From: an uncultured Acidobacteriota bacterium
Lineage (GTDB): Bacteria > Acidobacteriota > UBA6911 > RPQK01
Reading direction: 5' to 3'
NCBI GenBank assembly: GCA_963744645.1
Contig: CAVUUN010000014.1
Location: 1,308,976 to 1,372,975 of the forward strand
DNA length: 64,000 nucleotides
Made by a program: the position numbers and the translations under genes. Below are positions 3,077 through 63,863 of the stretch, in pieces. Every line of letters starts with the position of its first letter. Position 1 is the stretch's first letter. The notes below the pieces were generated by a model that was not told the origin of the DNA, searched no databases, and saw only the letters and a program-made list of their open reading frames with translations.

Positions 3077-3221
3077 GTGAATATCCAATTCGCCGTCCCA
3101 GAGTGTACGCGCTTTTCGCACCGTATTTAAGGGCGGAGATGAAAGACGTTATCCACGAAGGACGAAGAGAGACAAACGCCATCCATACCACCCTGCCTTT
3201 ATTCGTGTCCGTTCGTCACAA

Positions 3222-3393
3222 CCCGCTTACTCCGCTAAAAAGCGCTGTGTGACGGCTCTGACAATGCTCGACAGGACGGTTGGCTTCTATGGCTTCTTAG
3301 AAGGATGGAGCGAGTGCAAGAACGGGGAACCGCGCCCGGTGCGAGGTATTGTCAGAGCCGCGCACGCAGCGCTTTTCAGCGGAGTAAGCGGGT
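3222..3393. repeat. Family A palindromic repeat element: inverted 42-bp arms CCCGCTTACTCCGCTAAAAAGCGCTGTGTGACGGCTCTGACA / TGTCAGAGCCGCGCACGCAGCGCTTTTCAGCGGAGTAAGCGGG flanking a spacer of about 90 bp.
   Basis: Near-perfect inverted repeat read directly from the sequence. Closely related copies are at 10670..10827, 41163..41319 and 63723..63825, with partial copies at 10941..10979 and 19875..19936. Confidence 0.85.
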
Positions 3394-3502
3394 GGTCACA
3401 GCCGGCATACCCCCGTGCCCTTGACTATTGCAGCGCGATACGTCTTTCGTCTGTATGGAATTCGGGTCTAGACTGTATGGATCAAACAGGAGGATGGTTC
3501 TC

Positions 3503-4612
3503 ATGCGCCGTGTTCTCATACTTGCAGCATTATTACTTTCCGGTCAGGCCTTCGCTCAAGGGCCGCAACGACTTGTGTCCCCTGAGGTTCACCCGGACAA
3601 GAGTGTCACTTTTCGGTTGCGCGCTCCCGGCGCCAAAGAGGTTTTCATGGCCCGGGAATCGGCAGAACGATTGCCGATGCAGAAGGATGACCAGGGCGTC
3701 TGGACGGTCAAAACGTCGCCGCTGGAACCCGATCTTTACGGCTATAGCTTCGTCGTCGACGGGGTCACGTTGACCGATCCGTCCAGTCCCATCCTGGTGA
3801 AGCCCAATTTCATCTACCCGAGCAGCTATGTCCACGTGCCAGGTCCGGCTTCCCTTCCCTGGGAAATCAAAGACATTCCGCGTGGGGTCGTTCATCATCA
3901 CTTCTACCACTCCGCAGTCGTCGGAGACGACCGTGACTTCTACGTCTATACTCCTCCTGGCTATGACTCCAAAGCCCCCAGGCAATACCCGACACTGTAT
4001 CTGCTCCACGGTTTCAGCGACGACGCGAGCGGGTGGACGGCGGTCGGAAGAGCTCATGTCATTCTCGACAGCCTGATCGCCGACGGAAAAGCCAAGCCCA
4101 TGCTGGTGGTTATGCCACTCGGCTACGGTGCACCCGAAGTGGTCTCGCCCCGCAGCGGGCCCCGCGACAATACCGCCTGGAGACGTAACGTCGAGAAGTT
4201 CAGCGAGGCGACTTTGAAGGAGGTAGTTCCCCAGGTCGAGCAGTTGTACCGGGCTTCGCAGCAGCGTACGGACAGGGCGATCGCAGGCCTGTCAATGGGT
4301 GGAGCCGAGGCGTTGGCCACCGGTCTCAATGCGGTTGACCGGTTCGCTTGGGTCGGTGCGTTCAGTTCCGGCGGCCTGGGGGAGAATTTCGCGGGCACAT
4401 TTCCCACCCTGGATGCCAAGGCCAACGATCAGTTGCGCCTTCTGTGGATGGCTTGCGGCACCGAGGACGGCCTGATTCAAGGCAACCGAAAGCTCGTCGA
4501 GTGGCTGAAATCCAAGAACATTCGACACAACTGGACCGAGACACCCGGCGCCCATACCTGGATGGTGTGGCGGCGTTACCTCGCCCAGTTCGTGCCGTTG
4601 CTGTTCCAGTGA
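3503..4612 (+). CDS. Secreted putative esterase (esterase D / enterochelin-esterase-like fold with an N-terminal Ig-like domain).
   Basis: RBS AGGAGG 9 nt upstream of the ATG at 3503, signal peptide MRRVLILAALLLSGQAFA, a GLSMGG GxSxG motif and a putative-esterase family sequence pattern. Confidence 0.8.
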   Translation: MRRVLILAALLLSGQAFAQGPQRLVSPEVHPDKSVTFRLRAPGAKEVFMARESAERLPMQKDDQGVWTVKTSPLEPDLYGYSFVVDGVTLTDPSSPILVKPNFIYPSSYVHVPGPASLPWEIKDIPRGVVHHHFYHSAVVGDDRDFYVYTPPGYDSKAPRQYPTLYLLHGFSDDASGWTAVGRAHVILDSLIADGKAKPMLVVMPLGYGAPEVVSPRSGPRDNTAWRRNVEKFSEATLKEVVPQVEQLYRASQQRTDRAIAGLSMGGAEALATGLNAVDRFAWVGAFSSGGLGENFAGTFPTLDAKANDQLRLLWMACGTEDGLIQGNRKLVEWLKSKNIRHNWTETPGAHTWMVWRRYLAQFVPLLFQ

Positions 4613-4630
4613 AGGTAGAAGGAATTTCGG

Positions 4631-4744
4631 GGACACGAAACTTATTTCGGGGACATAACACTTAATTCCCAACCCGCTACCGGTGCTCTCTCCGGTTGCA
4701 AGGGAATTAAGTCTTGTGTCCCCGAAATTTCCCGAATGATGGAG
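4631..4744. repeat. Family B hairpin element: TTTCGGGGACATAACACTTAATTCCC, a loop of about 31 nt, then GGGAATTAAGTCTTGTGTCCCCGAAAT. It lies immediately upstream of the M16 start codon.
   Basis: Inverted repeat read from the sequence. The same element is at 23521..23867 (3 tandem units), 38193..38457 (2 units) and 50081..50193. Confidence 0.85.
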
Positions 4745-4749
4745 GAGGC

Positions 4750-6120
4750 ATGAAACGATTCTTTGTTGCGGCGTTTCTCTTGTGCATGGGAACCCTCTGG
4801 GCGCAAAACGCTCCTGTCAAGGTTCCCTACACCCGGTTCACGCTCCCCAATGGACTCACTGTAATTCTGCATGAGGATCACTCGGTGCCGCTGGTGAGTG
4901 TGAACACTTACTACCATGTCGGATCAGGACGTGAGAAGCCCGGGCGGACTGGCTTCGCACATCTCTTCGAACACCTGATGTTCGAGGGGTCCGCTAACGT
5001 CCCGGAAGGCAAGTTCGACGAATGGCTCGAGGCGGCCGGCGGTGACAACAACGGCTCGACGAATTCGGATCGCACCAACTACTGGATGGATGTCCCGCGC
5101 AACTCAATCGAGCTCCCCCTGTTTCTTGAATCCGACCGCATGGCCTACCTCTTGAAGACTATGACGGCGGCCACCGTGAACGGACAGCGGGACGTCGTCA
5201 AGAACGAGAGACGCCAGTCGTACGAAAACCGCCCGTACGGCATGTCCTCGATTCTCCTCTCCGAAAACCTGTACCCCGCTGATCATCCGTACCACTGGCC
5301 GACGATCGGCTCCATGGAAGACCTGTCGGCGGCGAGCTTCGAAGATGTCGTCGAGTTCTTCAAGCGGTACTACGGGCCCAACAACGCCAGCCTCGTGATC
5401 GGCGGCGATATCGACCCGGCCAAGACCCGGGCGGTGGTGACGAAGTGGTTCTCGGAAATTCCCGCCGGACCGCCGGTCCCGGCGTTTTTCGCGACTCCCC
5501 CGCGGCTGGCCGAAGAGAAACGCCTGCTGCTGGAGGACAAGGTCCAGTTGCCCCGTGTGTATATGGCATGGCTGACACCCGCCGCCTTCGCTCCGGGTGA
5601 TGCCGAGCTGGATGTGCTGGCCAGCGTGCTTGCCTCCGGAAAGAACTCCCGGCTCTATAAGCGTCTCGTCTACGAACTTCAGATCGCGCAGGACGTGGCC
5701 GCTTATCAGGCGACCGGGCAGCTTGGTTCCAGCTTCCGAATTATCGCGACGGCCCGCGCCGGCCACACTCTGTCTGAGTTGGAAGCGATCATCCAGGAAG
5801 AAATCGATCGCCTCAAGAAAGAGCCGCCCTCTTCGCGGGAGGTGGAACGCGTCGTCAATCAGATCGAAGCCGATTTTCTGTCGCGGATGGAACGGGTCGG
5901 GGGCTTCGGGGGCAAGGCCGATCAACTCAATTACTACTATACGGTCACCGGAAATCCGGACTATTTCAACGAGGATCTCGGCCGCTACAAGGCGCTCGCG
6001 CCCGAAGACGTAGCGAACGCGGCCCAGACCTATCTGCCCAACAATGCCCGGGTGATTCTGAGCGTTGTTCCCACCGGCAGGAAGGAACTGAGCGCAATGT
6101 CGGGAAAGGAGCAGAAGTAA
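4750..6120 (+). CDS. M16 family zinc metallopeptidase (active, HLFEH motif), secreted.
   Basis: RBS GGAGGAGG, a signal peptide, HLFEH, a downstream E and an NERRQ motif, and full-length two-domain M16 architecture. Confidence 0.9.
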   Translation: MKRFFVAAFLLCMGTLWAQNAPVKVPYTRFTLPNGLTVILHEDHSVPLVSVNTYYHVGSGREKPGRTGFAHLFEHLMFEGSANVPEGKFDEWLEAAGGDNNGSTNSDRTNYWMDVPRNSIELPLFLESDRMAYLLKTMTAATVNGQRDVVKNERRQSYENRPYGMSSILLSENLYPADHPYHWPTIGSMEDLSAASFEDVVEFFKRYYGPNNASLVIGGDIDPAKTRAVVTKWFSEIPAGPPVPAFFATPPRLAEEKRLLLEDKVQLPRVYMAWLTPAAFAPGDAELDVLASVLASGKNSRLYKRLVYELQIAQDVAAYQATGQLGSSFRIIATARAGHTLSELEAIIQEEIDRLKKEPPSSREVERVVNQIEADFLSRMERVGGFGGKADQLNYYYTVTGNPDYFNEDLGRYKALAPEDVANAAQTYLPNNARVILSVVPTGRKELSAMSGKEQK

Positions 6121-7635: not shown

Positions 7636-7819
7636 ATGGACAGAGTGGACAAAGTGGACAGATAGGACAAATCGCAGCCACCAGGTCCTATTCGTCCACC
7701 TTGTCCACTCTGTCCACCTTGTCCACTCGGCTTTTCGGCTCAGTTGTCAGTTGTCAGTTGTCAGTCGTCAGTTGTCAGTCGTCAGTTGTCAGTTGTCAGT
7801 CGTCAGTTGTCAGTCGTCG
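7636..7819. terminator. Palindrome (TGGACAGAGTGGACAAAGTGGACAGATAGGAC ... GTCCTATTCGTCCACCTTGTCCACTCTGTCCA) followed by a tandem heptamer array (GTTGTCA/GTCGTCA, about 11 units), between convergent genes.
   Basis: Perfect stem of about 32 bp plus heptanucleotide tandem repeats read from the sequence, located between the M16 (+) end and the ada (-) end. Confidence 0.6.
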
Positions 7820-8939
7820 TTCCGGCGTGCGCACGCTCGTGGTCCAGGAGACAGCGTTTCCGCCAGAGTCCCCCGCCATAACCGCAAAGCGTGCCGTCAG
7901 CCGCCACCACCCGGTGACACGGAATGATGATCCCGATGCGGTTGTCGCCATTGGCGCGCGCGACTGCACGCACGGCTTCCGGCTGTCCCAGCTTGGCTGC
8001 CTGCTCCGCGTAACTTGCGGTTGTTCCATAGGGGATGGTGCGCAGGATTTCCCACACTCGTTGCTGAAAAGGCGTGCCGGGAGTAAGCAGGGGCAGGTCG
8101 AACTCGCGGCGGCTCCCCTCAAAATACTCCTTGAGCTGCCGTTCGACCTCCGCCATCAAATCGGTCTCGCCTGGAACCGCGCGGCATGAAAGCCTGTCCT
8201 GAAGGCGTCGGATCTGGGTTTCGAGCATGCGCCGGTCGCAGAATTCGAGCAGGCACAATGCATCGTCGAATACTCCCACGACCAGCGGTCCCAAGGGCGA
8301 CAGGATGCGGGTCACCGTGACGACGTTCGTCGTTCGACTGCGCCCCGGGGTATCGCCAAAGAGCTTCTCAAAAGCGTCACGAAAACCGCTCAATGACTCG
8401 AATCCATGCTCGAAAGCAGCATCAGTCAGGTCGCCACCCCGCCGGATCCGACCGAGTGCAAGGGCAAGCCGGCGGGCCCTCTGGTAAGCGTGGAACGTCA
8501 TCGAATGGTTCGCAGTAAACCAGCGGCGAACACGGAAGGGGTCCAGACCGATGGCCCGTAAATCCGCGTCCATCCAGCGTTTCGCCGGATCCTCTTCGAT
8601 TGCGGCGAGCAATGGCGCCAGCCACTCGGGCGCCGCGCCCGGCGGGTCGACGGGACGACACCGGAGGCACGGCCGGTAGCCGGCAAACAGCGCCTCCTGG
8701 ACGCTCGCGTAGTATTCGACATTCTCGAGCTTGGGCTTTCGCGCGGTGCAGCTAGGACGGCAGAAGATCCCCGTCGTGCGTACAGCCGTGTAAAACACGC
8801 CGTCGAACTCGCTGTCACTGGCATTGAAAGCCCTCGCCATCACTTCGGTTGGAGGTAGTGTTTTGGAAAGCATGGGGCCAGTATCCGGAAAACGAAAAGC
8901 GATTTCTACCGGAGAACGATCAGGGAATCTTTTTTTCAT
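7803..8939 (-). CDS. ada: Bifunctional Ada: methylphosphotriester-DNA methyltransferase/AraC-type regulator fused to O6-methylguanine-DNA methyltransferase.
   Basis: N-terminal Ada zinc domain (FYTAVRTTGIFCRPSC...PCLRC), an AraC HTH and a C-terminal MGMT domain with PCHRV. The true start is probably MLSK at 8873. The extreme C-terminus (TTTDN) is read through the heptamer array and may be an artefact. Confidence 0.85.
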   Translation of the reverse strand: MKKRFPDRSPVEIAFRFPDTGPMLSKTLPPTEVMARAFNASDSEFDGVFYTAVRTTGIFCRPSCTARKPKLENVEYYASVQEALFAGYRPCLRCRPVDPPGAAPEWLAPLLAAIEEDPAKRWMDADLRAIGLDPFRVRRWFTANHSMTFHAYQRARRLALALGRIRRGGDLTDAAFEHGFESLSGFRDAFEKLFGDTPGRSRTTNVVTVTRILSPLGPLVVGVFDDALCLLEFCDRRMLETQIRRLQDRLSCRAVPGETDLMAEVERQLKEYFEGSRREFDLPLLTPGTPFQQRVWEILRTIPYGTTASYAEQAAKLGQPEAVRAVARANGDNRIGIIIPCHRVVAADGTLCGYGGGLWRKRCLLDHERAHAGTTTDN

Positions 8940-8986: not shown

Positions 8987-10328
8987 CTACTCTGCCACGA
9001 CCTTTGCCTTCAAGCCCGCGGGCTTGGACGGTGAGGCGGTCTCGACGAGCCGCGCGGCCTGAACGCGGCCGACTCCGCGGAACTCAAGTGCGCCCATATC
9101 CCGAAACGAGCCGGTGATCGCCGCCGCGTCATAATCCGTCACGGCATATGGATCCGCGCTCGCTGTGTCGACCGCCGAGCAAGCTGGTGACCAGGTGGAA
9201 ATCTCCCACAGCCGGGTTGCTGAACATCGAGGCGACGGCCGCCGCCTGCGAAATATTCCCCTCGAGGTCGATTCCAATGTTGTTCTTCACCACCAGCAAT
9301 GCCGGGTCGAGCGTGCCCACCGCGTGATTGACGAGGTTATAGAACGTATTGTTGTAGATTTCGCTTGGCGGGTGTTCGCCCGGGCTCCAGGTCTTGGACC
9401 AATCCTTCATCCGGATGGCGAACTCGCCTTTTCCGACCCCGTCGTAGACTACGTTGTTGAAGATCCGGTGGCCGGCTTCCGGTTCGACAACGAAAGCCGC
9501 TATGCCGCATTGATTGTTGAACAGGCGATTGTTGAAGACGAAGTTCGAATGGCCGTCGATGGTGATCGTTCCATCGTTGCCCCTCTCTGGATCGCCTCCA
9601 TATTCGGCCCATCGCACCTGGTTGTGGAAGACATTACTGTGGACTCTGATGTTGTGGCTGTACTTCTTGGTTTCCACGGCGTTCTCGGTGAATCCCCGAG
9701 CGATGTTACCGCAGATCTCGAGGTTGTAAACCGCCTGCTCGGGCTTGGTCTTGTTCCCGAGGTAGAACGCCTCACCCCAGAATTCCTGCCGGCCGGTGTT
9801 CTCGATAACGCTGTCGCGCACAATGACATCGTGTTCGCCGGAGGTGATGCTTACGCCCGCGGCTCGAACATCCATGATGTGGATGTGCTCGACAATCACA
9901 TCGTGGACAGGCTCGGGCAGCGAGACCTCTTCACCCGCCCCGATTCGCACTGCGCCTCGGTTTCCTCCCGTCCCAACGCCGTCAAACCTGATGTCCTGAA
10001 GGGTCACATAACTCGCCCAGACCCTCGCGAGCCGTTCATTGGGCACCCGGACGACCGCCTTCCACCGGTTGGCAGCACGCACCACAACTGGCGCCTGTGC
10101 GGCTCCCCCTTTCACTACGAACAGCGGTTCAGTGTAAATACCATCCAGGAGGATGACCTGATCTCCCGGTCCGGGCTTTGACAAACCGGTCGCGAGGGCG
10201 CACGGCGAGGCCGAACTGCAGTCTGTGCCCGAACCGGCGGGGGAAACGTAAAAACTTTCGGATAAGGCCGGGCTGATGAACCAGAAAGAAATCAATGTCA
10301 ACGGTAAAGCTGATGACATGGATATCAC
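8987..10328 (-). CDS. Secreted right-handed beta-helix (pectate-lyase-like) protein with an apparent frameshift near 9165-9175.
   Basis: Signal peptide and repeated beta-helix NxxG-like motifs. The C-terminal GDFHL...AVDTASADPYAVTDYDAAAITGSFRDMGALEF consensus is only recovered by switching frame from ORF 9129..10328 to ORF 8987..9277. Confidence 0.7.
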
Positions 10329-10669
10329 GTGTTACTCCTTGCGCGCTGCAGAGCGCCCGCACGAGCGCGGGCAGCGCATGTCTATTAGTGTATTTGTGCT
10401 AACGGTCGGCTTTATAACACACGCGTATAGCGGAGTAAACGAGCAAGTCGGAACGGGGGAGAGGGACAAAGGGGGTAAAGAGCAAGGGAGCGACGCGGTT
10501 CTTTCAAGGCCGCGCACAGCAGCGTTGCCTTTTCAGAGTCACACGCAGCGAGGGTGTTGAATAAGAGTCGGCGGGTTTTCAGTGGCGACGAATAGACACA
10601 AGGGCGTAAAGCCGCTGGCTCGACGGACCTCTGTGGAGCTATGGCAAGAGCCGGCCGAAGCCGAGTGGT

Positions 10670-10827
10670 GTCAGAGCCGCGCGCGAGCGCTTTCCAGCGT
10701 AGCAAGCGGGTTCAAACAGGGAGCGATCGCATGGTCCCCCTCCAGCGCCAGTGCCAACGGGCATGCGATCAGCCGGCTGTTCCAACCCGCTTGCTACGCT
10801 GAAAAGCGCTCGCGCGCGGCTCTGACA
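10670..10827. repeat. Family A palindromic repeat element (copy 2), plus a partial arm at 10941..10979.
   Basis: Arms GTCAGAGCCGCGCGCGAGCGCTTTCCAGCGTAGCAAGCGGG / CCCGCTTGCTACGCTGAAAAGCGCTCGCGCGCGGCTCTGACA. Confidence 0.85.
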
Positions 10828-11004
10828 CCGCTCGGTCGGCCGGTGTCCCCTGCCAGGCGCCTCAGAAAGACCACGCGTTTACATTTCTGTGACTTTCCGT
10901 AAGCTCGAGGGAATTCAAGACCTTATTCGACAGCCTCGCTGCGTGTGACAAAGGCACCGCTACGTGCGCGGCTCTGACAAGACAACCTTGCCCCCCTCGC
11001 TTCG

Positions 11005-19847: not shown

Positions 19848-20151
19848 AGGATAAATTCGATCCTTTCAGGACACCGTGTCAGAGCCACCGAACGCAGACG
19901 TGGCGTGACAACCGCCCTTCCACCGGCGGCTCTGAAACAGTGCTTGCTCAGCCTTCCCAATCCTGCAAACACCCGACGTTGTCGGATCAGCAGCGAGGCT
20001 GAACCATAATCGCAGGGGCGACCATCCAAGGTGGTTAAGCGAAGGTAAAAAGATTGTTAACGGTGTTAAATCGAGCACCCGAATCCGTATATGGGACAAC
20101 GTAACCGGATATCAGGACATTGCGTCTCGCGCAAGAGCTGAGGAAAACGAG

Positions 20152-20838: not shown

Positions 20839-21078
20839 GGGTTGCACGGGGGGCTGGGTTAGACGGTTCAGGGTTTGGGGGTTTGGGGGTTTGGAGGGTT
20901 CAGGGTTCAGGGTTCAGGGTTCGGGGTTCGGGGTTCGGGGTTGAGGAATTCAGTGTTCAGAAGTCAAGGAGTTCGGGGGTTCAGGTCTAACCGTCCAACC
21001 GTCTAACCGTCTAACCGTCTAACCGTCCAGCCCCCGAACTCAGAACTCAGAACTTCAGAACTCAGAACTTCGAGCTGT
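20838..21078. terminator. Imperfect 240-bp palindrome built from heptamer repeats (GGTTCAG/GGTTCGG ... CTAACCG ... GAACTCA), between convergent genes.
   Basis: Read from the sequence between the response regulator (+) end and the RRM gene (-) end. Confidence 0.55.
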
Positions 21079-23301: not shown

Positions 23302-23520
23302 GACTAACCAGCAGTGCGCGCCCAGAGGCCCGGAAGGCGTGTATTCCGAACCTTAAGAACGCCCGGAACTCCTGCCTCTTCTTCTCTCCGCAAAGCCCCT
23401 TAGGGATCACGTGGGAACAGCACGAGGAACTGTTCTGGGTGTCACGCGAAGAATACTGCAAAGAGACGGTTCTAGGCAAGCTGTACGACGAGCAGCCCGG
23501 CTAACAGGCTGACAGGAGGG

Positions 23521-23867
23521 GAATTTCGGGGACATGATACTCAATTCCCCCGCGCCTCCGGGGGGTGACAGTCGGCAAGGAATTGAGTTTCGTTTCCCCA
23601 AATTCCGCAAATTCGCGGTGAGACACCGAGAACGGAAGGGAGTCGCGTCGGAGTTTCGGGGACATGATACTCAATTCCCCCGCGCCTCCGGGCGGTGACA
23701 GTCGGCGAGGAATTGAGTTTCGTGTCCCCGAAATCCGCAAATTCGCGCTGTGAGACACCGAGAACGCAAGGGAGTCGCGTCGGAGTTTCGGGAGACAAAT
23801 ACTCAATTCCCTCGCACCCTTCGTGCACTCGCAGACCCAAAGGAATTGAGTTTACGTCCTCGAAACT
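23521..23867. repeat. Family B hairpin element in three tandem units (period about 122-133 bp), 220 bp upstream of radical SAM paralog 3.
   Basis: Units start at 23521, 23643 and 23776. Each contains TTTCGGGGACATGATACTCAATTCCC ... GGAATTGAGTTTCGT(G/T)TCCCCGAAAT. Confidence 0.85.
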
Positions 23868-29937: not shown

Positions 29938-31080
29938 ATGCGGTTTTCCACAAAAGCCATCCACGTCGGACAGAAACCGGACCCGGCCACCGGGGCAACG
30001 ATTCCTCCCATTCATCTCACTTCCACCTACACTCAGGAGTTGCCCGGGCGGCACAAGGGTTTCGAGTATTCCCGTTCAAACAATCCGACGCGCTCGGCTC
30101 TGGAACAGTGCCTGGCTTCTCTCGAAGAGGGAGAAGCATGTGCTGCCTTCAGCTCCGGCATAGCCGCCGCAGCTGCCGTTCTGCAGACGCTTCGCCCGGG
30201 AGATGGAGTAGTGGGCGGACATGACCTCTACGGCGGCACCGTCCGGCTCCTGACCCAGCATTTCGTCCCGTGGGGCCTGGAAGTAGCCTTCGCGGCCAGC
30301 ACCGAGCCGGATGCTTACGCCGAGGCGGCGAATTCGCTGTCGCGTCCCCGGCTGTTGTGGCTCGAGACGCCGAGCAACCCGCTTCTCGAGATCGTCGACA
30401 TTCGTGCCCTGGCCGCGTTGGGACAATCGCGCGACATGCGGGTGCTCGTCGACAACACGTTTGCTTCCCCGTACCTGCAGAAGCCTCTCGTCCTCGGCGC
30501 CGACCTCGTCCTGCACAGTACGACGAAGTACCTCGGCGGGCACTCGGACGTGATCGGCGGCGCGATCGTCGCCCGGAGTGTCGACCGGCTGGATCCCATT
30601 CGCTTTGTTCAGAACGCCGCAGGCGCCGTGCCCGGTCCGCTTGACTGCTACCTGGTTCAGCGCGGACTCAAGACCCTGGCCCTGCGAATGGAGCGGCACT
30701 GCCGCAATGCCCGGCACGTGGCCAAGATGTTGAGCAACCACCCGAAGGTCAAGCGTGTCCTTTACCCGGGGTTCCAGAATCACCCGGGACACCGGGTCGC
30801 AGCCGAGCAGATGTCAGGGATGGGCGGGATGGTCACGTTCGAGCTCGCGGACGGACCCGAAACTGTGGACGGTTTCTTCTCCCACCTGCAGTTGTTTTCG
30901 ACGGCCGAGAGCCTGGGAGGTGTCGAATCGCTCGCATCTCACCCGGCCTCGATGACCCACTCGAGTCTCACGCCGGAGCGAAGGAAGGCCGCGGGAATCA
31001 CCGACACGATGATCCGCTTGAGTGTCGGCATTGAAGATGTCGAGGACCTGCTGCGCGACCTGGAACGCGCGCTGCGGTAG
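29938..31080 (+). CDS. Cystathionine gamma-lyase / gamma-synthase family PLP enzyme.
   Basis: Cys_Met_Meta_PP family with the lysine region STTKYLGGHSD, immediately downstream of CBS (reverse transsulfuration pair). Confidence 0.85.
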   Translation: MRFSTKAIHVGQKPDPATGATIPPIHLTSTYTQELPGRHKGFEYSRSNNPTRSALEQCLASLEEGEACAAFSSGIAAAAAVLQTLRPGDGVVGGHDLYGGTVRLLTQHFVPWGLEVAFAASTEPDAYAEAANSLSRPRLLWLETPSNPLLEIVDIRALAALGQSRDMRVLVDNTFASPYLQKPLVLGADLVLHSTTKYLGGHSDVIGGAIVARSVDRLDPIRFVQNAAGAVPGPLDCYLVQRGLKTLALRMERHCRNARHVAKMLSNHPKVKRVLYPGFQNHPGHRVAAEQMSGMGGMVTFELADGPETVDGFFSHLQLFSTAESLGGVESLASHPASMTHSSLTPERRKAAGITDTMIRLSVGIEDVEDLLRDLERALR

Positions 31081-31555
31081 GTGGGAGTTCGGAGTTCTGA
31101 GTTCGGAGTTCTGAGTTCTGAGAAGGTGTGAAAAAATCGGTTTTGCTTGCGAAGACTCGGTTTTCGACCCCAAGGGGGTCGCGTAGCAAAGCCCAGGGTT
31201 GGCCGCGTTGTCTGCGGCCTACCCTGGGTCGGGGACCCCAGAGTTCAACCCTGAAAGGGTTGCGTATCATGCACATACGCAACCCTTTCAGGGTTGAGGC
31301 GTTTGCTACTGCCACCCAGGGTAGGCCGCAGACAACGCGGCCAACCCTGGGCTTTGCTGCGCGACCCCCTTGGGGTCGAAAACCCGTCTTTCGATTTCTT
31401 CACACCTTCTGAGTCTGGGTTCTGAGTTCGGAGTTCTGAGTTCTGGGTTTGGGTGGGTTTGCGGCCAGGCAACTTACGCTTCCTAACCTTGACTGAGAAC
31501 ACTGAACGAATGGAACCCAACTCAGAACTCAGAACTCAGAACTTAGAACTGCGCT
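31081..31555. repeat. Complex repeat: GAGTTCT/GAGTTCG heptamer arrays flanking a near-perfect palindrome of about 240 bp that contains a nested inner hairpin.
   Basis: Outer arms of about 70 bp (GGTTTTCGACCCCAAGGGGGTCGCGTAGCAAAGCCCAGGGTTGGCCGCGTTGTCTGCGGCCTACCCTGGGT) with 1 mismatch. Inner hairpin AACCCTGAAAGGGTTGCGTAT ... ATACGCAACCCTTTCAGGGTT. Inverted CAGAACT arrays lie at 31510..31550. Confidence 0.8.
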
Positions 31556-31646: not shown

Positions 31647-32708
31647 TTGGGGTGTCATCACATGAAACGAACTGAGGAAGGCCGGCACCGATTCCTGGCA
31701 GTCGAAATCCCGAGTGTCCTGCTCACCGTATTCTGCTTCTTCGCCTGCATTGTTGCGGCCCTTGCCCAGGTGCGAAGTGAGCCGCCTCGGCCCCGCTTCG
31801 GTGATTCAACGTTTTCGATCGAGGGGTCGGTCGTGGATGCGAAGGGTCGACCGGTTCAGCACGCCCGCCTGGTCCTGAATGTATTCGGCACCGAGGGGCA
31901 ACGCACCGATTTCTCGGACACAGACGGTCGGTTTATCTTCCGGAGACTTCCTGAAGGCAGCTACACCATGGACGTTTCCGCAGGCGGCTTCCAGTCAACC
32001 AAAGAGGAGATCCAGCTGGTCAGCGTCTCTCGCACGATCCGCATTGTCCTTACGCCTGGTGAGCGGTCCGAAGAGCGCCACCAGGGAGGGACCGAGAGTG
32101 TTTCGGCCGCGTCGTTACGGGTACCCAAGGAAGCCGAGAAGCTCTACAGGAAGGCCCTTCGTTCTCACACGGAAAAGCGCTATGACGAAGCCTTGAAGGA
32201 GTTCGACGAGGCGCTGAAGATAGCTCCGGACTTCGCGCGCGCCTACGCCGGCCGGGGCATTACACTGCTTCAAATGCAAAATCGGGCGGAAGCCAGAATC
32301 GCCTTCGAGAAGGCGGTTCGGCTCGATCCGGAATCCTTCGATGCTCAAGTGGGGCTGGGACTTGTCCTCAACGACTTGCGCGAGTTCCAAGCTTCGACCG
32401 AACACCTGTTGAAGGCACGGTCACTGAACAGCGCCGGGTGGCAGGTGCATTACGAGCTCGGGCGCGCGTACTTCGCCCTGGCAGACTACCCGGAAGCCGA
32501 AGCCAGCCTGAGGACCGCCCGGGCTTCCTCGCCCCATTATCCCGGCCTCTACCTGTTGCTTTCCAATCTTTATCTGAAGACCAACAGGCCGGCCGACGCG
32601 GTGAACGAGCTGCAGGGTTTCCTTAAGATGTTTCCTGACGGGCCAATGGCCGAACAGGTCCAGAAGAGAATCAAGTTGATCGGAGAGCGTGAGGCAACTG
32701 CGCACTGA
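31647..32708 (+). CDS. Secreted protein with a carboxypeptidase-regulatory-like (transthyretin-like) domain plus TPR repeats.
   Basis: N-terminal TM/signal segment, a CarbopepD_reg-like beta-sandwich (GSVVDAKGRPVQHARLVL...DGRFIFRRLPEGSY) and at least 4 TPR-like repeats. The true start may be 31662. Confidence 0.75.
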   Translation: MGCHHMKRTEEGRHRFLAVEIPSVLLTVFCFFACIVAALAQVRSEPPRPRFGDSTFSIEGSVVDAKGRPVQHARLVLNVFGTEGQRTDFSDTDGRFIFRRLPEGSYTMDVSAGGFQSTKEEIQLVSVSRTIRIVLTPGERSEERHQGGTESVSAASLRVPKEAEKLYRKALRSHTEKRYDEALKEFDEALKIAPDFARAYAGRGITLLQMQNRAEARIAFEKAVRLDPESFDAQVGLGLVLNDLREFQASTEHLLKARSLNSAGWQVHYELGRAYFALADYPEAEASLRTARASSPHYPGLYLLLSNLYLKTNRPADAVNELQGFLKMFPDGPMAEQVQKRIKLIGEREATAH

Positions 32709-32862
32709 CGACTGCGAACTGCTCACTACCCGCTGCGCACTGCGCACTACCCGGCTGACCGGCTGACCATTTGATCAGCCAGTGGGCGGTGGGCAGTTCG
32801 CAGTGCGCAGTGCGCAGTTCGTCAGTGCGCAGTGCGCAGCGGGCAGTTGTCAGTTGCTTTTG
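32709..32862. terminator. Palindrome of GCGCACT/CTGACCG heptamer repeats between convergent genes.
   Basis: ACTGCGCACTGCGCACTACCCGGCTGACCGGCTGACC ... GGTGGGCAGTTCGCAGTGCGCAGTGCGCAGT. Confidence 0.55.
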
Positions 32863-35842: not shown

Positions 35843-38221
35843 ATGACCGATCAGGAACCGGGCAGACCCACTCGCATCCTTCCTGCTCTTCCGATCGATC
35901 CTCGCCTCCCGGAGATCGTGTCCGTCCTACGGAAATATCGTCGTGCGGTGCTCGTTGCCCCGCCGGGCGCAGGCAAGACGACTCGTGTGGCGCCCGCCCT
36001 GATCGAAGAAGGACCCGTCATCCTCCTCCAGCCGCGCCGGGTGGCGGCCCGGTCAATAGCCGCGCGGATTGCGTCAGAACAGGGCTGGGAGATCGGTCGC
36101 GAGGTTGGCTGGCAAGTGCGATTTGAAAGACGGTTCGGACGCGAAACTCGACTACTCGTTTGCACCGAGGGCATCCTCACGAATCGTCTCCAGGCGGATC
36201 CTCTCCTGACCGGTTTCCGGACGGCGATCCTCGACGAGTTCCACGAGCGGAGTGTGCACGCCGATGTTGCACTCGCGCTCATGCGGGAAGCCGTGCGCGC
36301 CCGCGACGACCTGCAGCTTCTGGTGATGTCTGCCACCCTTGATGCCCGGGCGGTGTCCGATTACCTCGACGGCTGCCCGATGATCGAAGTCGAGGGACGA
36401 GCTCACCCGGTCGAGATCGGGTACGCTCCTCACACGTTTCCACAGTCAGCCATCACCGAGAGACTTGATCAGCCCGGAGGCCACATCCTTTGTTTTCTGC
36501 CCGGGGCGGGAGAGATCTCCAGGCTTGGCGAAGACCTGCGTGCCCGTGCCCGGCCCGGGGTGGCGATTCTTCCTCTTCATGGGACGCTCGAGGCGGCGGC
36601 GCAGGACCGGGCGCTGGCACCTTCTCGTGAACGGAAGGTCATCCTTGCCACGAATATCGCCGAAACTTCCTTGACCGTCGAAGGCGTCACCGATGTGATC
36701 GATACCGGCCTCCACAAGGTCCTTCGCTATGATTCACGCCGGGGAATCGACAGTCTGGAGCTTGAACGCATTCCGGCTGATTCAGCCGAACAGCGTGCCG
36801 GACGAGCTGGTAGGCTCGGACCCGGCCGCGCGCTCAGACTCTGGGATCCTCGGGAACGGCTCCGGCCGCATCGTGAAGCCGACATCCGGCGTATCGACCT
36901 GGCGGCGCCTTTCCTGGATGTGATTGCCTGGGGGGGAGACCCGCTCTCCCTTGACTGGTACGAGGCTCCGGCAAGGGAACGAGCAGAGTCCGCACTGGAA
37001 CTGCTCGATCGACTTGGCCTGGTCCGGGACGGGCGGCTGACCCCGCTCGGGGACATCGCGCACCGCCTGCCCCTCCATCCCAGGCTCGCCTGCATCCTCG
37101 TAAGTGCCGGAGGATCCCGGCGGGCCGCCGCAGTATGTGCCCTGCTCTCCGAGCGAGGACAATCCCACCCCGCTTTGCACGCGACCGATTCGGACATCCT
37201 GACCCTTGCAGATGAAATCGACATCGCGCCACCTCCTGTGCGCAACGTCGCGCTCGAAATCGAGCGGGTGGGCCGGTCGCTTCTCGGGCGCGGCGTCAAG
37301 ACCGACCCGTCAGAGGAAAGCCTGCTGAGAAGCATTCTGGCGGGTTTCCCTGACCGCGTGGCCCAGCGCCGGGAGCCCCGCTCTGCCCGCCTGCTCCTGG
37401 CGAGCGGGCATGGAGCGAGGCTGACCGCGGACAGCGGCGTCTGGGACGGGGAATACCTGGTCGCCCTTGACGTGATCGGAAGCGAAGCACGGGGCGTCAG
37501 CGAGGCGCTGGTTCGCCAGGCCAGCCGGATCGAGAAGCAATGGCTCCGGCCGACGTGCGTGGAAGTGAGGCACTGGTTCGATCCCGAAACCCGGGCAGTT
37601 AAGGCGGTCGAGCAAGTTCGTTACATGGCGCTCCTTCTGGCCGAACGTCCTGTCCCTCCCCATCCCGACGAATCCATCGACTTGCTCCTTGGAGCGTGGG
37701 CAAAAGAGCCGTTGGACGAGGCGTCCCGCACACTCGTTGCCCGGGCCCGAATGGCCGGCGTTTCGATTGACATGGAGGCGGCCAGGCGGGCCGCATGCGC
37801 GGGACGCGTGTCCCTTCCGCGGCTCGACCTGCATCTCAGTCTCAGTCACGCAGAGCGCCAGCTCCTGGATCGCCTCTGCCCCGAGTCGGTGCGGGTGCCG
37901 AGCGGCCGATCGATTCGACTCGAGTACGGGGATGACGGGATCGTCCGCCTCTCGGTTAAGCTTCAGGAACTGTTCGGGCTGGAGGAGGGGCCGCGTGTGG
38001 GACGCAACCAGGAACCGGTCCTGATCCATTTGCTCGCTCCCAACGGCCGGCCGGTCCAAACAACCACCGACCTGCGCAGTTTCTGGCAACGAACTTACCC
38101 GGAAGTGCGCAGAGAGTTGCGCGGACGGTATCCCAAACACCCTTGGCCGGAAGACCCGGCAGGCGCCGAGCCAACCGCCCGAGTGAAGAAGCGAGTTTCG
38201 GGGAGAGTTTCGGGGACATAA
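35843..38221 (+). CDS. hrpB: ATP-dependent RNA helicase HrpB (DEAH-box).
   Basis: Walker A APPGAGKTT, DEFHER, SATL, a helicase C domain, and the HA2 and HrpB C-terminal regions. The ORF-track entry 34619..38221 is extended upstream by antisense read-through of the preceding gene. Confidence 0.9.
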   Translation: MTDQEPGRPTRILPALPIDPRLPEIVSVLRKYRRAVLVAPPGAGKTTRVAPALIEEGPVILLQPRRVAARSIAARIASEQGWEIGREVGWQVRFERRFGRETRLLVCTEGILTNRLQADPLLTGFRTAILDEFHERSVHADVALALMREAVRARDDLQLLVMSATLDARAVSDYLDGCPMIEVEGRAHPVEIGYAPHTFPQSAITERLDQPGGHILCFLPGAGEISRLGEDLRARARPGVAILPLHGTLEAAAQDRALAPSRERKVILATNIAETSLTVEGVTDVIDTGLHKVLRYDSRRGIDSLELERIPADSAEQRAGRAGRLGPGRALRLWDPRERLRPHREADIRRIDLAAPFLDVIAWGGDPLSLDWYEAPARERAESALELLDRLGLVRDGRLTPLGDIAHRLPLHPRLACILVSAGGSRRAAAVCALLSERGQSHPALHATDSDILTLADEIDIAPPPVRNVALEIERVGRSLLGRGVKTDPSEESLLRSILAGFPDRVAQRREPRSARLLLASGHGARLTADSGVWDGEYLVALDVIGSEARGVSEALVRQASRIEKQWLRPTCVEVRHWFDPETRAVKAVEQVRYMALLLAERPVPPHPDESIDLLLGAWAKEPLDEASRTLVARARMAGVSIDMEAARRAACAGRVSLPRLDLHLSLSHAERQLLDRLCPESVRVPSGRSIRLEYGDDGIVRLSVKLQELFGLEEGPRVGRNQEPVLIHLLAPNGRPVQTTTDLRSFWQRTYPEVRRELRGRYPKHPWPEDPAGAEPTARVKKRVSGRVSGT

Positions 38222-38457
38222 ACTTAATTCCCGTGAACCTGCGGCAGCAGGTGAACGCTTTGGGAATTAAGTATTGTGTCCCCGAAACTCTCCCGAAACC
38301 CCCGAAAGTCGGGAAGCTTCGGTCGCCGGTGGTATATTGCTGCAGCCCTGCAAGGGAATGTCGGGGGAATGTCGGGGACACAAAACTTAATTCCTTTGCA
38401 AGCTCCTAACTTGATGGAAACGGTTTGGGAATTAAGTATTATGTCCCCGAGATTCCC
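38193..38457. repeat. Family B hairpin element in two tandem units, immediately upstream of the 38488 start codon.
   Basis: GAGTTTCGGGGACATAAACTTAATTCCC ... GGGAATTAAGTATTGTGTCCCCGAAAC, and a second unit ending GGAATTAAGTATTATGTCCCCGAGATTCCCC. Confidence 0.85.
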
Positions 38458-38487
38458 CTGAATCTCAGCAACAACGGAGGTCATTTG

Positions 38488-39494: not shown

Positions 39495-39590
39495 GACGGG
39501 CCCGCGGATTTACGCGGATCTGCGCGGATAATCGCGGATTAAGGCAGCGTCCTCTTTGTTCGCTGCCTTAATCCGCGATTATCCGCGCAG
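39495..39590. terminator. Near-perfect 42-bp-stem palindrome of CGCGGAT repeats; bidirectional terminator between convergent genes.
   Basis: CCCGCGGATCTGCGCGGATAATCGCGGATTAAGGCAGCG, a loop, then its inverse. It is followed by T-runs on both strands. Confidence 0.75.
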
Positions 39591-39607
39591 ATCCGCGGGC
39601 CGCTTTC

Positions 39608-40992: not shown

Positions 40993-41162
40993 GCATAGCA
41001 TTCCACAAGAACCGCCGAGACGGGGAGATGATACAGTCTCCGGGCTCCGGGCACAATCTCTGGATCGACCCGGGTGGATGCGTCCTTCCGAGTGCGCAAG
41101 CTTGCTCGCGCTTTATACGGATCTTGGGATTCCGGTGGGCATGCACCTGCTTTCGGTTCGAA

Positions 41163-41319
41163 CCCGCTTGCTTCGCGGAAAGACGCTCGCGCGCGGCTCT
41201 GATGGGACTCGGCGAACACCGCGCAACCGCTCAGGCTCTATCGTAATACGAGTCATAGCAGGCGACACCGAGTCGTGTGTCAGAGCCGCGCGCGAGTGCT
41301 TTCCAGCGAAGCAAGCGGG
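41163..41319. repeat. Family A palindromic repeat element (copy 4).
   Basis: Arms CCCGCTTGCTTCGCGGAAAGACGCTCGCGCGCGGCTCTGA / GTCAGAGCCGCGCGCGAGTGCTTTCCAGCGAAGCAAGCGGG. Confidence 0.85.
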
Positions 41320-41529
41320 TTCGAACCGAAAGCAAAATTGCATACCCTAAGGTGTCTAACATGCATATAAGCAGAGCAAGGTTGCGCGCTCCAAGGCTCG
41401 CTTCGCTCGCAAACTTTCCTTGGGGCACTTTTCCGCTCACTTTTTCAACACCCCCTTGGGGGACGATTCTCGCGGTCCCTCCTGACAACTGACTTCGACT
41501 GCTGTATAAGAGAATCTTCAGGAGCGAAC

Positions 41530-47320: not shown

Positions 47321-47330
47321 GAAAGAAAAC

Positions 47331-47450
47331 CGGCCCGCGGATCTACGCGGATCTACGCGGATAATCGCGGATAAAGGCAGCCGACGTTTCATCGGCTGCC
47401 TTTATCCGCGATTATCCGCGTAGATCCGCGTAGATCCGCGGGCCGGTTCC
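47331..47450. terminator. Perfect stem palindrome of about 50 bp made of CGCGGAT heptamers; bidirectional terminator.
   Basis: CCGGCCCGCGGATCTACGCGGATCTACGCGGATAATCGCGGATAAAGGCAGCCGA, a loop, then its inverse. It lies between convergent glpC and DUF1080 genes and is the same heptamer family as 39495..39590. Confidence 0.75.
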
Positions 47451-50080: not shown

Positions 50081-50193
50081 ATTTCGGGGACTCGACGATT
50101 TCGGGGACATAATACTTAATTCCCACCCCGTAACCACCGAACTCCGCGTGAGCAAAGGAATTAAGTATTATGTCCCCGAAATGCCCGAAATTG
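50081..50193. repeat. Family B hairpin element immediately upstream of the pgm start codon.
   Basis: ATTTCGGGGACATAATACTTAATTCCC, a loop, then GGAATTAAGTATTATGTCCCCGAAAT. Confidence 0.85.
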
Positions 50194-52024: not shown

Positions 52025-52392
52025 ATCCTGACCGGCTCACCAGCTGACCGGCTGACCAGATCGTTGCGCACTGCGCGCTTCGCACTGCGCACTTCAACTG
52101 GGCTAAGGGACGACCAGTCGGCGAGGTCAGAAGGGTGGGGGAGGTATGTAGTACCGGCTTCAGCCGGTCGAACCGTCGGCAATCTCGATTGTCCGAGCGC
52201 CGAACTCGGGCACGAGCTGGCTTGCGGCGGTACTACGAACCTCGTCAGTCCGTCAGCTCGTCAGCCTCTCAGCCGGTCAGCCGGTCAGCCGGTTAGTGGT
52301 CAGTCGTCAGTAGTTTAGTCGTCAGTGGTCAGCCGGTCAGCTCGGTTAGCCGGTCAGCTCGTCAGCCGGTCAGCCGGTCAGTCGTCAGTGTT
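52025..52392. terminator. Two palindromic heptamer-repeat blocks (CTGACCGG / GCGCACT / CGTCAGT families) between convergent genes.
   Basis: 52025..52100 shares the CTGACCGGCTGACC and GCGCACTGCGCAC modules with 32709..32862. 52236..52392 contains GTCAGCC/GTCAGTC arrays. Confidence 0.5.
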
Positions 52393-53263
52393 TCAGCAAC
52401 CGCTCCACCACCGCGGGGTCGACCGGCTTCAATTCCACCCGACGCACGATGATCTCCGCCCCTTCCGACTGAATCTGGATCTTCCCGGCGCTGTGGGTGG
52501 AGTTCGTCCCGTAGTTGACGACCGTGCCGTTGACCACGTTGATTATGGACGCCCCGTCACAGATGACTTCCGACCGATTCCACTGGCGGACCGGCTTCTC
52601 CACGTCCTGACGACCTCGAAAACCGAGCGCATCCTTCCACTCGACGTCCCGCCCAAACCAGTTGAATCGCCCCTCGTTCCGTCTCACCTCGGCACCGTTC
52701 GGGTCCCAGTAAAGCTGGCCGTCCGGCCCGACTCGTGTCTTGACCGAGAGTGCCGGACGTGAGGCACCCGCGACAAGGATGATGTCACCGCATCCGCCCT
52801 CGATGATCTGGTGCTCGATCGACTCGAGCCAGCATTCCCCGGCGGCCCCGTCTGCCCCGACCCCGTGAACCAGGATCCCGCTGTCTCGGGCCTTCTGCTT
52901 TCTCGGCTCATAGGTCGCTCCTCCCCAGCGCCATTCCACGACAAGGTGGTAATCACGAAAGGCGTCGCGGGTAGTGAGCGCGCCCCATTCCTCGCCCGAA
53001 ATCCGGATGGCACCGTCGACAATTTGAAATACACCTTTGGGATCGGTGTACTTGCTCGACTTGAGATAAGTGTAGAAGTGATCGAGACCCTTTCCCTCGA
53101 ATAGGACAAGTGGCGTCGTGACGCGCCGGGCCTCCTGCGCTTCGGCCGGCTGACCGGGCACCGGGCCCGCTCTGAGGGTCAGAACAGACATCAGAATCGG
53201 GAGGCACCAGAACCCGTTTAAGATTTTGCGGCGGTTGTGGAAATCCATGAAAGCAGTGTACAT
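52385..53263 (-). CDS. Secreted DUF1080 family protein (paralog of 47470..48238).
   Basis: Signal peptide (ILNGFWCLPILMSVLTLRAGP) and a DUF1080 domain. Start at MYTAF (53263) or MDFHN (53248). Confidence 0.75.
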   Translation of the reverse strand: MYTAFMDFHNRRKILNGFWCLPILMSVLTLRAGPVPGQPAEAQEARRVTTPLVLFEGKGLDHFYTYLKSSKYTDPKGVFQIVDGAIRISGEEWGALTTRDAFRDYHLVVEWRWGGATYEPRKQKARDSGILVHGVGADGAAGECWLESIEHQIIEGGCGDIILVAGASRPALSVKTRVGPDGQLYWDPNGAEVRRNEGRFNWFGRDVEWKDALGFRGRQDVEKPVRQWNRSEVICDGASIINVVNGTVVNYGTNSTHSAGKIQIQSEGAEIIVRRVELKPVDPAVVERLLKH

Positions 53264-59795: not shown

Positions 59796-60300
59796 GATCG
59801 CAGTTGACTCGGAACGGACGTCGGCCTTCTGGAGCGCGGACGTCTCGTCCGCACTGGGTTCGCGGGCATCCTGCCCGCGCGCCGGGCATCTTGCCCGGCG
59901 TTGCTTTTTCCCCGGCGATCGTTGCGAGTGGGCTCCGAAGGCCGGGCAAGATGCCCGGCGCGCGGACGGGACGAGGGTGTCGAAAAGTCAAAGGTGCAGC
60001 AGCCCATCTACTCCTGGGAGCCCAGGGGCACAAGCTGCGTAGCCCCGGGTGACCGAGCCCCGTTTCGGGGTGAGGGAGCCGGGGCACACGCAAAGCTCCA
60101 GCTTTCGCTGAGCGATCGCCTGAACAGCAACCCCATCCCGGGCAAGAAGAAAAACGACGTACTCTTTACCACGGGGCTTCGCTTCACCTTCGAATAATTC
60201 CCTCTGATCAGAGACAAGTGGGGTACACACGATTTATGATGCAGGGCAGCCGGCCTGGGTGGGCCGTGCTTTTTTCAACTGGTCCCTTAAGGAGTTAGTC

Positions 60301-63300: not shown

Positions 63301-63676
63301 GAAGGCTGCGGGTGGCCCCCTCGATCGCCGGCCGGAGGCGGATGGTTCCCGTCCCCGGCGCCGCACCGAGAGCCAGCAGTACTTCCAGGCCTTGGCGATG
63401 CAGAAGCTGGGTCAGAACGAGAAGGCGACGGCCATCTTCCAGGCATTGGTTGACTCGGCAGCGCAATCACTCAAGGAGAGATCCGAGATCGACTTCTTTG
63501 CTTCTTTCGGAGAGCAGCAGTCCCAGCGCTCACGCCTGGCACAGAACCATTACCAGGCCGGCCTGGGTTATCTTGGCCTTGGCGAAAAGCAAAAGGCCAA
63601 GCAGGAAATGGCGGATGCTTTGAAAGTCAGCCCGGACCACCTCGCCGCCAAGCAGGCCCTGGCCGCGATGGACTAA
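60301..63676 (+). CDS. Secreted DUF5107-domain protein with C-terminal TPR repeats (about 1120 aa), with an apparent 1-nt frameshift near 63200.
   Basis: AAGGAG RBS, signal peptide, DUF5107-like N-terminal 400 aa and multiple TPRs. After the stop at 63213 the protein continues in the +1 frame (EGYRAAELNYWIGVAQEALGDTGKAKASWEKAAG ... 63392..63676). Removing one C from CCTCCCG joins them. Confidence 0.75.
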
Positions 63677-63722
63677 CGGTTTGCCGAGTAGTTTTCAGAA
63701 CCGCGCACGCAGCGCAGTCCGG

Positions 63723-63825
63723 TCAGAGCCGCGCACGCAGCGCTGTCCAGCGGAGTAAGCGGGTTCCCCCTGCCCAGCGAAGCCGCTTGCTCCGCTGGAA
63801 AGCGCTGCGTGCGCGGCTCTGAAAG
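63723..63825. repeat. Family A palindromic repeat element (copy 5, short loop).
   Basis: GTCAGAGCCGCGCACGCAGCGCTGTCCAGCGGAGTAAGCGGG ... CCGCTTGCTCCGCTGGAAAGCGCTGCGTGCGCGGCTCTGA. Confidence 0.85.
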
Positions 63826-63863
63826 AGAAAAGCATGGGCCCCCACTCACACTTGGAGGAACAA

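Follow-up and report, generated by a model that had tools for sequence, protein, structure and literature searches.

Repeat units between the genes of the window

The window, as we call the whole 64-kb stretch of acidobacterial DNA analysed here, contains four inverted doublets of a repeat unit of ~45 nt, 5'-TCAGAGCCGCGC…GAGTAAGCGGGTTC, together with fragments of this unit (in the following called family A). The doublets span positions 3213-3403, 10659-10837, 41148-41334 and 63716-63833 (loci 1 to 4), and none is expected by chance. All four lie in intergenic regions, most of the bordering ORFs have Pfam support, and the functions of the genes beside the four loci are unrelated to each other.

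A conserved family of intergenic palindromes had been proposed for this DNA in an earlier note, and our searches bear this out. The 42-nt consensus given there matched three sites at ≤3 mismatches, compared with 0.00 expected from shuffles. We built an arm profile (nhmmer) from the eight window arms, which recovered all eight of them (3273-/3341+, 10659+/10835-, 41213-/41268+, 63716+/63833-) with E-values of 1e-15 to 1e-18 and added partial copies at 10958-10984(-), 63682-63720(+) and 10497-10536(+). An inverted-repeat search, independent of the profile, yielded the same four pairs, with arms of 37-59 nt and 89-93% complementarity. The 10-mer TCAGAGCCRC occurs ten times in the window, against 0.54 expected. 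Altogether, there are eight full family A units and about five fragments per 64 kb.

When 58 units of the window and of related loci were aligned, two main subfamilies became apparent, A1 and A2, and a third variant type was found in one related locus (L012). The A1 consensus is TCAGAGCCGCGCACGCAGCGCTTTTCAGCGGAGTAAGCGGGTTC, and A1 units form loci 1 and 4. The A2 consensus is …CCGAGTsGTGTCAGAGCCGCGCGCG-AGCGCTTTCCAGCGAAGCAAGCGGGTTCGAACMGAAAGC, with A2 units at loci 2 and 3. The A2 unit exceeds the arm length of 42 bp given in the earlier note, with conserved flanks on both sides (CCGAGTsGTG… and …GGGTTCGAACMGAAAGC).

Within an alignment of 35 units, the foot of family A is CAGA at columns 6-9, with CGGA in three units. 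The foot, (T)CAGA, is followed by GCCGCGC…GAGTAAGCGGGTTC, forming a sequence of ~40 nt that is weakly self-complementary. The doublets occur in two arrangements, with the TCAGAG ends directed outward (foot-out) at loci 2 and 4 and inward (foot-in) at loci 1 and 3. A census of the window and the related loci L001-L025, in which one pairing was corrected by hand, comprised 53 units, arranged as 16 foot-out doublets, four foot-in doublets and 13 unpaired units. The spacers of these 20 doublets are mostly 9-67 nt long. Family A units also occur solo, in tandem and as half-unit hybrids, and in both orientations in every type of intergenic context.

Locus 1 is a foot-in doublet of A1 units. The left unit (3213..3273, core 3222-3263; nhmmer E 9e-16) lies on the minus strand with its CAGA foot inward, the right unit (3341..3403, core 3351-3392) on the plus strand. 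The neighboring genes, encoding a BD-FAE/alpha-beta hydrolase and an esterase, are divergent.

At locus 2, four or five units and fragments are nested into one cluster, in the order hybrid unit, A2 doublet, hybrid unit. The cluster is located between a radical-SAM gene and a gene for a protein of 399 amino acids, which are co-directional and both on the minus strand. The left A2 unit (10659..10719, core 10670-10710, plus strand; nhmmer E 1.6e-18) and the right A2 unit (10776..10835, core 10787-10827, minus strand) form a foot-out doublet with a spacer of 56 nt. In the hybrid unit on the outer left (10533..10561, plus strand), the 5' half of A (TCAGAGTCACACGCAGC) is joined to GAGGGTGTTGAA. The hybrid unit on the outer right (10927..10977, minus strand) reads TTCGACAGCCTCGCTGCGTG…GTGCGCGGCTCTGA with a 19-nt insertion, and corresponds to what the earlier note had listed as a partial arm at 10941..10979. 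A degenerate 5' unit fragment (TCAAGGCCGCGCACAGCAGCG) at 10504..10524 on the plus strand gave the weak nhmmer match 10497-10536.

In the hybrid units, a motif, TTCAACACCCTCGC, is fused to one half of unit A, either 5' or 3', and the junction is invariably the central …ACGC|AGCG…. We found such hybrids in the window at 10533-10561(+), 10927-10977(-) and 41444-41455, and in relatives at L005 ~1225, L011 ~555, L015 ~1522, L016 ~5446 and L009 1392-1415 and 2305-2345. This fixed central fusion point could be a site of recombination or cleavage. A GC-rich palindrome of 43 nt lies at 10339-10381, just upstream of the ribosome-binding site of the gene 9129-10328; the orthologous site in L082 is without this palindrome, and the surrounding promoter-like region is conserved.

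Locus 3 is a foot-in doublet of A2 units, the left one at 41152..41213 (core 41163-41202, minus strand; nhmmer E 5e-16) and the right one at 41268..41330 (core 41279-41319, plus strand). It lies between divergent genes, upstream of an FGGY kinase gene (41530→).

Locus 4 is a foot-out doublet of A1 units with a loop of 18 nt. The left unit (63716..63772, core 63722-63763, plus strand) was matched by both the consensus and the profile, and the right unit (63772..63833, core 63782-63823) follows on the minus strand. At 63682..63720 on the plus strand, the 5' half of the unit is partially duplicated in tandem (nhmmer E 2.4e-5), and this duplicate also appeared in the repeat-finder output. The doublet begins 45 nt past the stop codon of a TPR gene and ends 43 nt ahead of the ATG of the next gene, both on the plus strand. 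The DUF5107/TPR gene at 60259-63213 and 63392-63676 is apparently split into two ORFs, both with TPR matches, which may reflect a frameshift or a sequencing error.

A short "double-foot" palindrome at 19879..19935 shares the TCAGAGCCRC termini only. It had been taken for a degenerate copy (19875-19936), but only termini of 10-12 nt (TCAGAGCCAC / GCGGCTCTGA) are common to it and the family. It may be a centrally deleted doublet.

Copies in related genomes and turnover between them

The earlier note had suggested looking for copies in related genomes. A strict 21-base pattern was run against a collection with one genome for each species, to which the window's own genome does not belong, and gave 25 loci, on 23 contigs of the Acidobacteriota MAG CAYQYP01 (GCA_964421755.1) and two from a second Acidobacteriota MAG. 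A scan of metagenomes, likewise a collection without the window's genome, found the motif in 49 contigs from a few samples; the sediment metagenomes Ga0105091, Ga0105092, Ga0105104, Ga0105107 and Ga0209077 carry the family. Several of the contigs from relatives end within a unit, as is typical of a high-copy repeat.

The radical-SAM protein of the window is 85% identical to its ortholog in the MAG, and the order of the neighboring genes is conserved. A blastn comparison of the window with the fetched loci returned repeats only, plus one gene-sized match of ~72% identity. Whole elements are conserved between the genomes: window positions 10642-10947 are 77-83% identical to copies in L008, L002, L056 and L065. 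The spacers are thus not variable as had been claimed but conserved across genomes within subfamilies, and at locus 2 this extends over the whole element of ~290 nt.

The region between the radical-SAM gene and the gene for the 399-aa protein could be compared directly. In the window it carries the composite A2 cluster of locus 2; in the MAG, it carries a solo A1 unit in opposite orientation and, in addition, an unrelated palindrome, while the promoter-proximal 70 nt are kept in both. The different family A content at this orthologous site points to turnover by gain, loss or replacement, and the comparison is direct evidence of such an event, without its exact ends. A precise pair of filled and empty sites was not found in the genomes compared.

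In the related MAG, A1 doublets also lie inside an element of ~200 nt with sharp ends and perfect outer inverted repeats of 18 nt, CTAGCCCGCATTTCTCAC…GTGAGAAATGCGGGCTAG (L010 ~2683-2879, L012 ~4110-4300, L015 ~287-483 and L018 ~4887-5080). With these ends and repeats, it is a composite repeat that was itself multiplied.

A Y1/HuH transposase-like gene between inverted A2 units

A REP-associated tyrosine transposase, for which the earlier note had proposed a search, was indeed found in related genomes, in the form of a Y1/HuH transposase-like gene between inverted A2 units. In L009, an ORF of 181 amino acids (1619-2161) is flanked by A2(+) at 1484-1545, ~74 nt upstream, and by A2(-) at 2186-2247, ~25 nt downstream. 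An intact 181-aa gene (its product is called P0001 in the following) has the same inverted A2 flanks in four JGI metagenome contigs, so that one intact gene context was met across four samples. In all, we identified the unit-flanked gene in relatives at L009, L026-L029, L055 and L059. In the MAG assembly, codon 146 of the L009 gene is an in-frame TGA, but a Trp codon in the four metagenome contigs. Another paralog, ~90% identical (L001 1322-1726; L043), ends prematurely after residue ~135, with an inverted fragment behind it.

The left A2 unit of locus 2 in the window and the unit that precedes the L009 gene are 95% identical over 60 nt, and the hybrid module 10533..10561 also lies beside this gene in equal relative position, with 23 of 24 nt identical. 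Locus 2 has the layout of the L009 gene locus minus the gene, including the outer module CACGCAGCGAGGGTGTTGAA at equal distance. The same nested gene-less layout is present in at least four copies in a relative (L002, L008, L056 and L065), and in the metagenome and genome loci together gene-less units far outnumber genes.

We identified 86 homologs of P0001, many of which have precomputed PF01797 (Y1_Tnp) matches, and many carry the JGI name "REP element-mobilizing transposase RayT". Across 85 homologs, H98-x-H100 (HuH), W136-T and Y157-VLNR-Q are conserved at ≥90%, and an N-terminal PLAYLITFTCYGTHLHG block is conserved among them as well. The Pfam Y1_Tnp match of P0001 itself is below the family cut-off (18.5 vs 23 bits), and the family profile gave weak matches to IS200 transposases among PDB sequences (E 0.03). 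The AF2/AlphaFold model of P0001 has a pLDDT of 89.9 and a pTM of 0.85. A fold search with this model returned as best match 4ER8, a complex of E. coli TnpA-REP with a REP hairpin (E 3e-4), followed by the TnpA proteins of IS608, IS200 and ISDra2. At the level of the predicted structure, the HuH/Y1 fold of P0001 is thereby confirmed.

The association recurs among distant homologs. Three of them, with 40-46% identity and from other genomes (L030-L032), are flanked by inverted or clustered A-like units. In these units, nGAGCCGCGCACG…GAGTAAGCGG is common and encloses a central hairpin that varies, and the feet are CCGA or CAGA, or AGGA in two cases. P0050 has up to five adjoining units, and P0043 doublets on both sides. 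The gene for P0008 (46% identical; L030 2953-3504) lies between jag (R3H) and mnmE in a yidC-jag-mnmE cluster, has short inverted units only at its ends, and looks like a fixed, domesticated copy.

Relation to class 3 transposases and other known systems

Quentin et al. 2018 (BMC Genomics 19:475; PMC6006769) defined a "class 3" of TnpAY1 proteins, mainly from Planctomycetes and Acidobacteria, with an HuH motif of NHVH type, W[TA], YV[VI]xEQ (Y----Q), a length of ~178 aa and an extended conserved N-terminus. According to these authors, class 3 genes have weak, atypical hairpins on their flanks, each with the foot CnGA on its 5' side, ~600 copies of the structure occur in Solibacter usitatus and are "reminiscent of REP sequences", and the class resembles both IS and REPtrons (PMC6006769). 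The units in their Table S1 (PMC6006769), such as CAGAGCCGCGACCGTTAGGGAGCGTCCCG, agree with family A in their first ten bases; the published class 3 units (CAGAGCCGCGACCGTTAGGGAGCG…) and family A have a common 5' CAGAGCCGCG.

The proteins described here share with the class 3 proteins of Solibacter usitatus Ellin6076 and Planctopirus limnophila the xH[VC]H form of the HuH motif, W-T, Y----Q, the length of ~180 aa and the extended N-terminus. Further points of agreement are the acidobacterial host, the inverted repeats flanking the gene and the CnGA foot followed by GCCGCG. The repeats also occur in multiple copies, as counted in the window and in the related MAG, and the weakness of the individual hairpin fits the published structures without being independent proof. 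Family A differs from the published units in its length (~45 nt, or ~60-85 nt for A2, vs ~26-30 nt), in the inserted mini-hairpin CGCT-TTTC-AGCG and in a conserved GAGTAAGCGGGTTC 3' block instead of the GTNA loop. Its prevalent long REPIN-like doublets, in both polarities, and its nested and hybrid clusters likewise go beyond what was described for class 3. Based on the matching protein signature and CnGA foot, we place family A with the class 3 REP-like sequences. It is a lineage-specific REP-like family of a kind that is already known, and among the options in the earlier note the evidence supports the first, a REP/MITE-like family. No class 3 transposase gene is present in the 64-kb window.

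The REPIN/RAYT systems of E. coli and Pseudomonas (class 2 TnpA-REP), reportedly described by Nunvar in 2010 and by Bertels and Rainey in 2011, are another close system, and the best structural match of P0001 is E. coli TnpA-REP (4ER8). Like them, family A consists of short units that are mostly arranged as inverted hairpin doublets, plus decayed singlets; it is intergenic, and its gene-less units exceed the flanked Y1 gene by far. Unlike them, it has the foot CAGA/CGGA instead of GT[AG]G, its enzyme has the Y-motif YVLxxQG (Y----Q, as in class 1) instead of YIxxNP, its single unit is a poor palindrome, and its host phylum lies outside the Proteobacteria, where REPINs were studied. A simple REPIN model also fails to predict foot-in doublets and clusters of the nested or hybrid type. 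The BIMEs of E. coli, mosaics in which clustered REP units alternate in orientation and are interspersed with other short motifs, resemble locus 2 in their organization, but the unit sequence is unrelated, and TTCAACACCCTCGC is fused to half-units rather than forming a separate linker.

Taken together, family A probably represents the REP/REPIN-like DNA partner of a class 3 HuH/Y1 enzyme, with hairpin doublets that were multiplied via single-strand cleavage and joining and then decayed. The units would be the cognate DNA of a small, RayT-like HuH/Y1 single-strand transposase of the "class 3 TnpAY1" type. This enzyme may recognize the foot and the hairpin on single-stranded DNA, for example on the lagging-strand template, in analogy to TnpA-REP and IS608 TnpA, and would cut and rejoin the strand via its HuH metal site and catalytic tyrosine. 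It would thereby multiply or move gene-less doublets and clusters, whose later decay would yield solo units, "double-foot" stubs and hybrid fragments. From the analogy with these enzymes we infer binding, cleavage and mobilization of family A, and a transposase gene presumably resides elsewhere in the window's own genome.

The main alternative, itself a version of the preferred reading, is that the gene with its nested inverted flanks forms an autonomous, still mobile IS200/IS605-like transposon; IS200/IS605 enzymes share the HuH/Y1 fold and the Y----Q motif with P0001. The gene-less doublets and clusters, such as locus 2, would then be MITE/PATE-like deletion derivatives rather than parts of a domesticated RAYT/REPIN system. 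The gene-less copies, locus 2 and at least four in relatives (L002, L008, L056 and L065), do keep the layout of the gene locus, and two paralogous gene copies with ~90% identity exist in one population. However, the units flanking the gene are inverted (plus upstream, minus downstream), unlike the hairpins at the left and right ends of IS200/IS605, which lie in direct orientation on one strand, and no tnpB was found at the L009 gene locus or its JGI copies. Multiple identical gene copies, too, were not seen. There is a single intact gene context across four samples, a homolog sits fixed in the housekeeping cluster between jag and mnmE, and genes are vastly outnumbered by gene-less units. We therefore regard such a transposon as an unlikely source of family A.

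Between these two possibilities, the class 3 system might be a living intermediate on the way from IS200/IS605 to domesticated RAYT/REPIN. In this speculative and rather doubtful scenario, mobility would persist both in the nested arrangement [hybrid → [A2 → gene ← A2] ← hybrid] and in the corresponding arrangement without the gene (10533-10977, with at least four copies in relatives), and the …ACGC|AGCG… of the half-unit hybrids would be a real site of cleavage or strand exchange inside the unit, instead of the foot.

For the preferred pairing of family A with a class 3 enzyme, several implications follow. The biology of REP and REPIN-RAYT systems has been worked out almost wholly in Proteobacteria, and to our knowledge class 3 Y1 enzymes are known from one comparative survey only; our search of the literature found no later or experimental work on them. 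Family A and P0001 make a clean pair of substrate and enzyme for a first biochemical test, consisting of defined A1 and A2 units, an intact enzyme of 181 aa and a confident model. They show class 3 repeats arranged as long REPIN-like doublets and in nested clusters, with turnover between related Acidobacteriota. For genome annotation, the family accounts for palindromes that recur between the genes of acidobacterial MAGs and for breaks between their contigs.

Folding and signals at the four loci

As single-stranded DNA, the doublets are predicted to form hairpins of 40-60 bp. Their folding energies are -62.2 kcal/mol for locus 1 (3213-3403; z -9.4 vs shuffles), -90.5 kcal/mol for locus 2 (10659-10837; z -16.3), -86.9 kcal/mol for locus 3 (41148-41334; z -14.9) and -59.9 kcal/mol for locus 4 (z -13.0). 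The single unit is predicted to form a weak, imperfect hairpin of 4+2+4 bp, with GCCGC/GCGG as outer and CGCT/AGCG as inner stem, and as single-stranded DNA its folding energy does not differ from that of shuffles in its favor (z -1.0 to +0.8). RNAalifold kept only six pairs in the units, just one of them covarying (A-T in 15 vs G-C in 13 units), and this split is that between A1 and A2.

The earlier note had suggested selection on the stem. Comparing the arms with each other, we counted 32 shared changes vs 25 differences in a single arm. As the shared changes are mostly subfamily markers, they do not demonstrate such selection; the similarity of the arms is equally well explained by the copying of doublets as units, and the spacers are kept within subfamilies, too. 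Selection on the stem is therefore not established.

The hairpins are very stable and, in the window, strictly intergenic, and enterobacterial REPs have secondary roles of this sort (PMC3733652), so that a function for the host at the RNA or DNA level comes to mind, in 3'-end stabilization, in termination or as a site for a nucleoid or regulatory protein, with the link to the transposase being incidental. This is improbable for several reasons. A scan of the whole window at the gathering scores of Rfam 15 returned no matches, and neither T-tract (intrinsic) terminators nor sigma-70-like promoters were detected at any of the four loci. At two of the loci, the flanking genes start divergently, and a terminator would have no role there. 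The structured RNA and the protein-binding (operator) readings of the earlier note are not supported, and units occur in both orientations in all intergenic contexts. The functionally unrelated neighbor genes, the different content of the orthologous site and the recurrence of the Y1 gene association among homologs of 40% identity argue in the same direction.

MITEs of a DDE-type insertion sequence, with the 42-nt arms as terminal inverted repeats for a classical transposase, would account for the inverted repeats with a variable centre and for the perfect 18-nt outer inverted repeats (CTAGCCCGCATTTCTCAC) of the ~200-nt element that holds one subfamily in the relative, but they are highly improbable given that either end can point outward (16 foot-out vs 4 foot-in doublets) and that units are also solo, in tandem or half-unit hybrids, that inspection revealed no flanking direct repeats at the four window loci, and that the only unit-bracketed gene found encodes a Y1/HuH enzyme.

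Two further candidates were rejected. For a tRNA-like origin, considered for the resemblance of GGGTTCGAAC to a T-arm, inspection found no complementary 3' half after this sequence. An integron attC or cassette array was dismissed because the copies are dispersed 7-30 kb apart and have both polarities.

Other repeats in the window

A second palindromic family occurs at 4622-4737, 23484-23818, 38205-38462 and 50096-50191, with the core TTTCGGGGACA[CT]…AATTCC; at one of these sites, three copies of ~130 nt stand in tandem. This core agrees with the TIR consensus GGGG[AT][CG]A[CG] quoted for the TIRYT (subclass 2.1) tyrosine-transposase genes (PMC6006769). The TTTCGGGGACA repeats may also be linked to a Y1 gene, as the second family of this kind in the genome.

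Short tandem arrays with units of 7-8 nt (GTCAGTT, GGGTTCA, GTCTAACC, GTCAGCCG and CACTGCG) are located at 7726-7825, 20893-20938, 20985-21040, 31075-31120, 31414-31459, 32696-32858 and 52244-52397, some of them in inverted pairs around other elements. An inverted repeat of 71 nt (31159-31229 / 31314-31384) is 99% complementary, with a spacer of 84 nt. The related MAG has it in common with the window at 80-88% identity (L023 386-615; L014 3411-3524), so that it represents another mobile palindromic family. Finally, two ATCCGCG-type palindromes at 39496-39606 and 47328-47448 are 85-92% alike, and the latter has arms of 57 nt that are 100% complementary.
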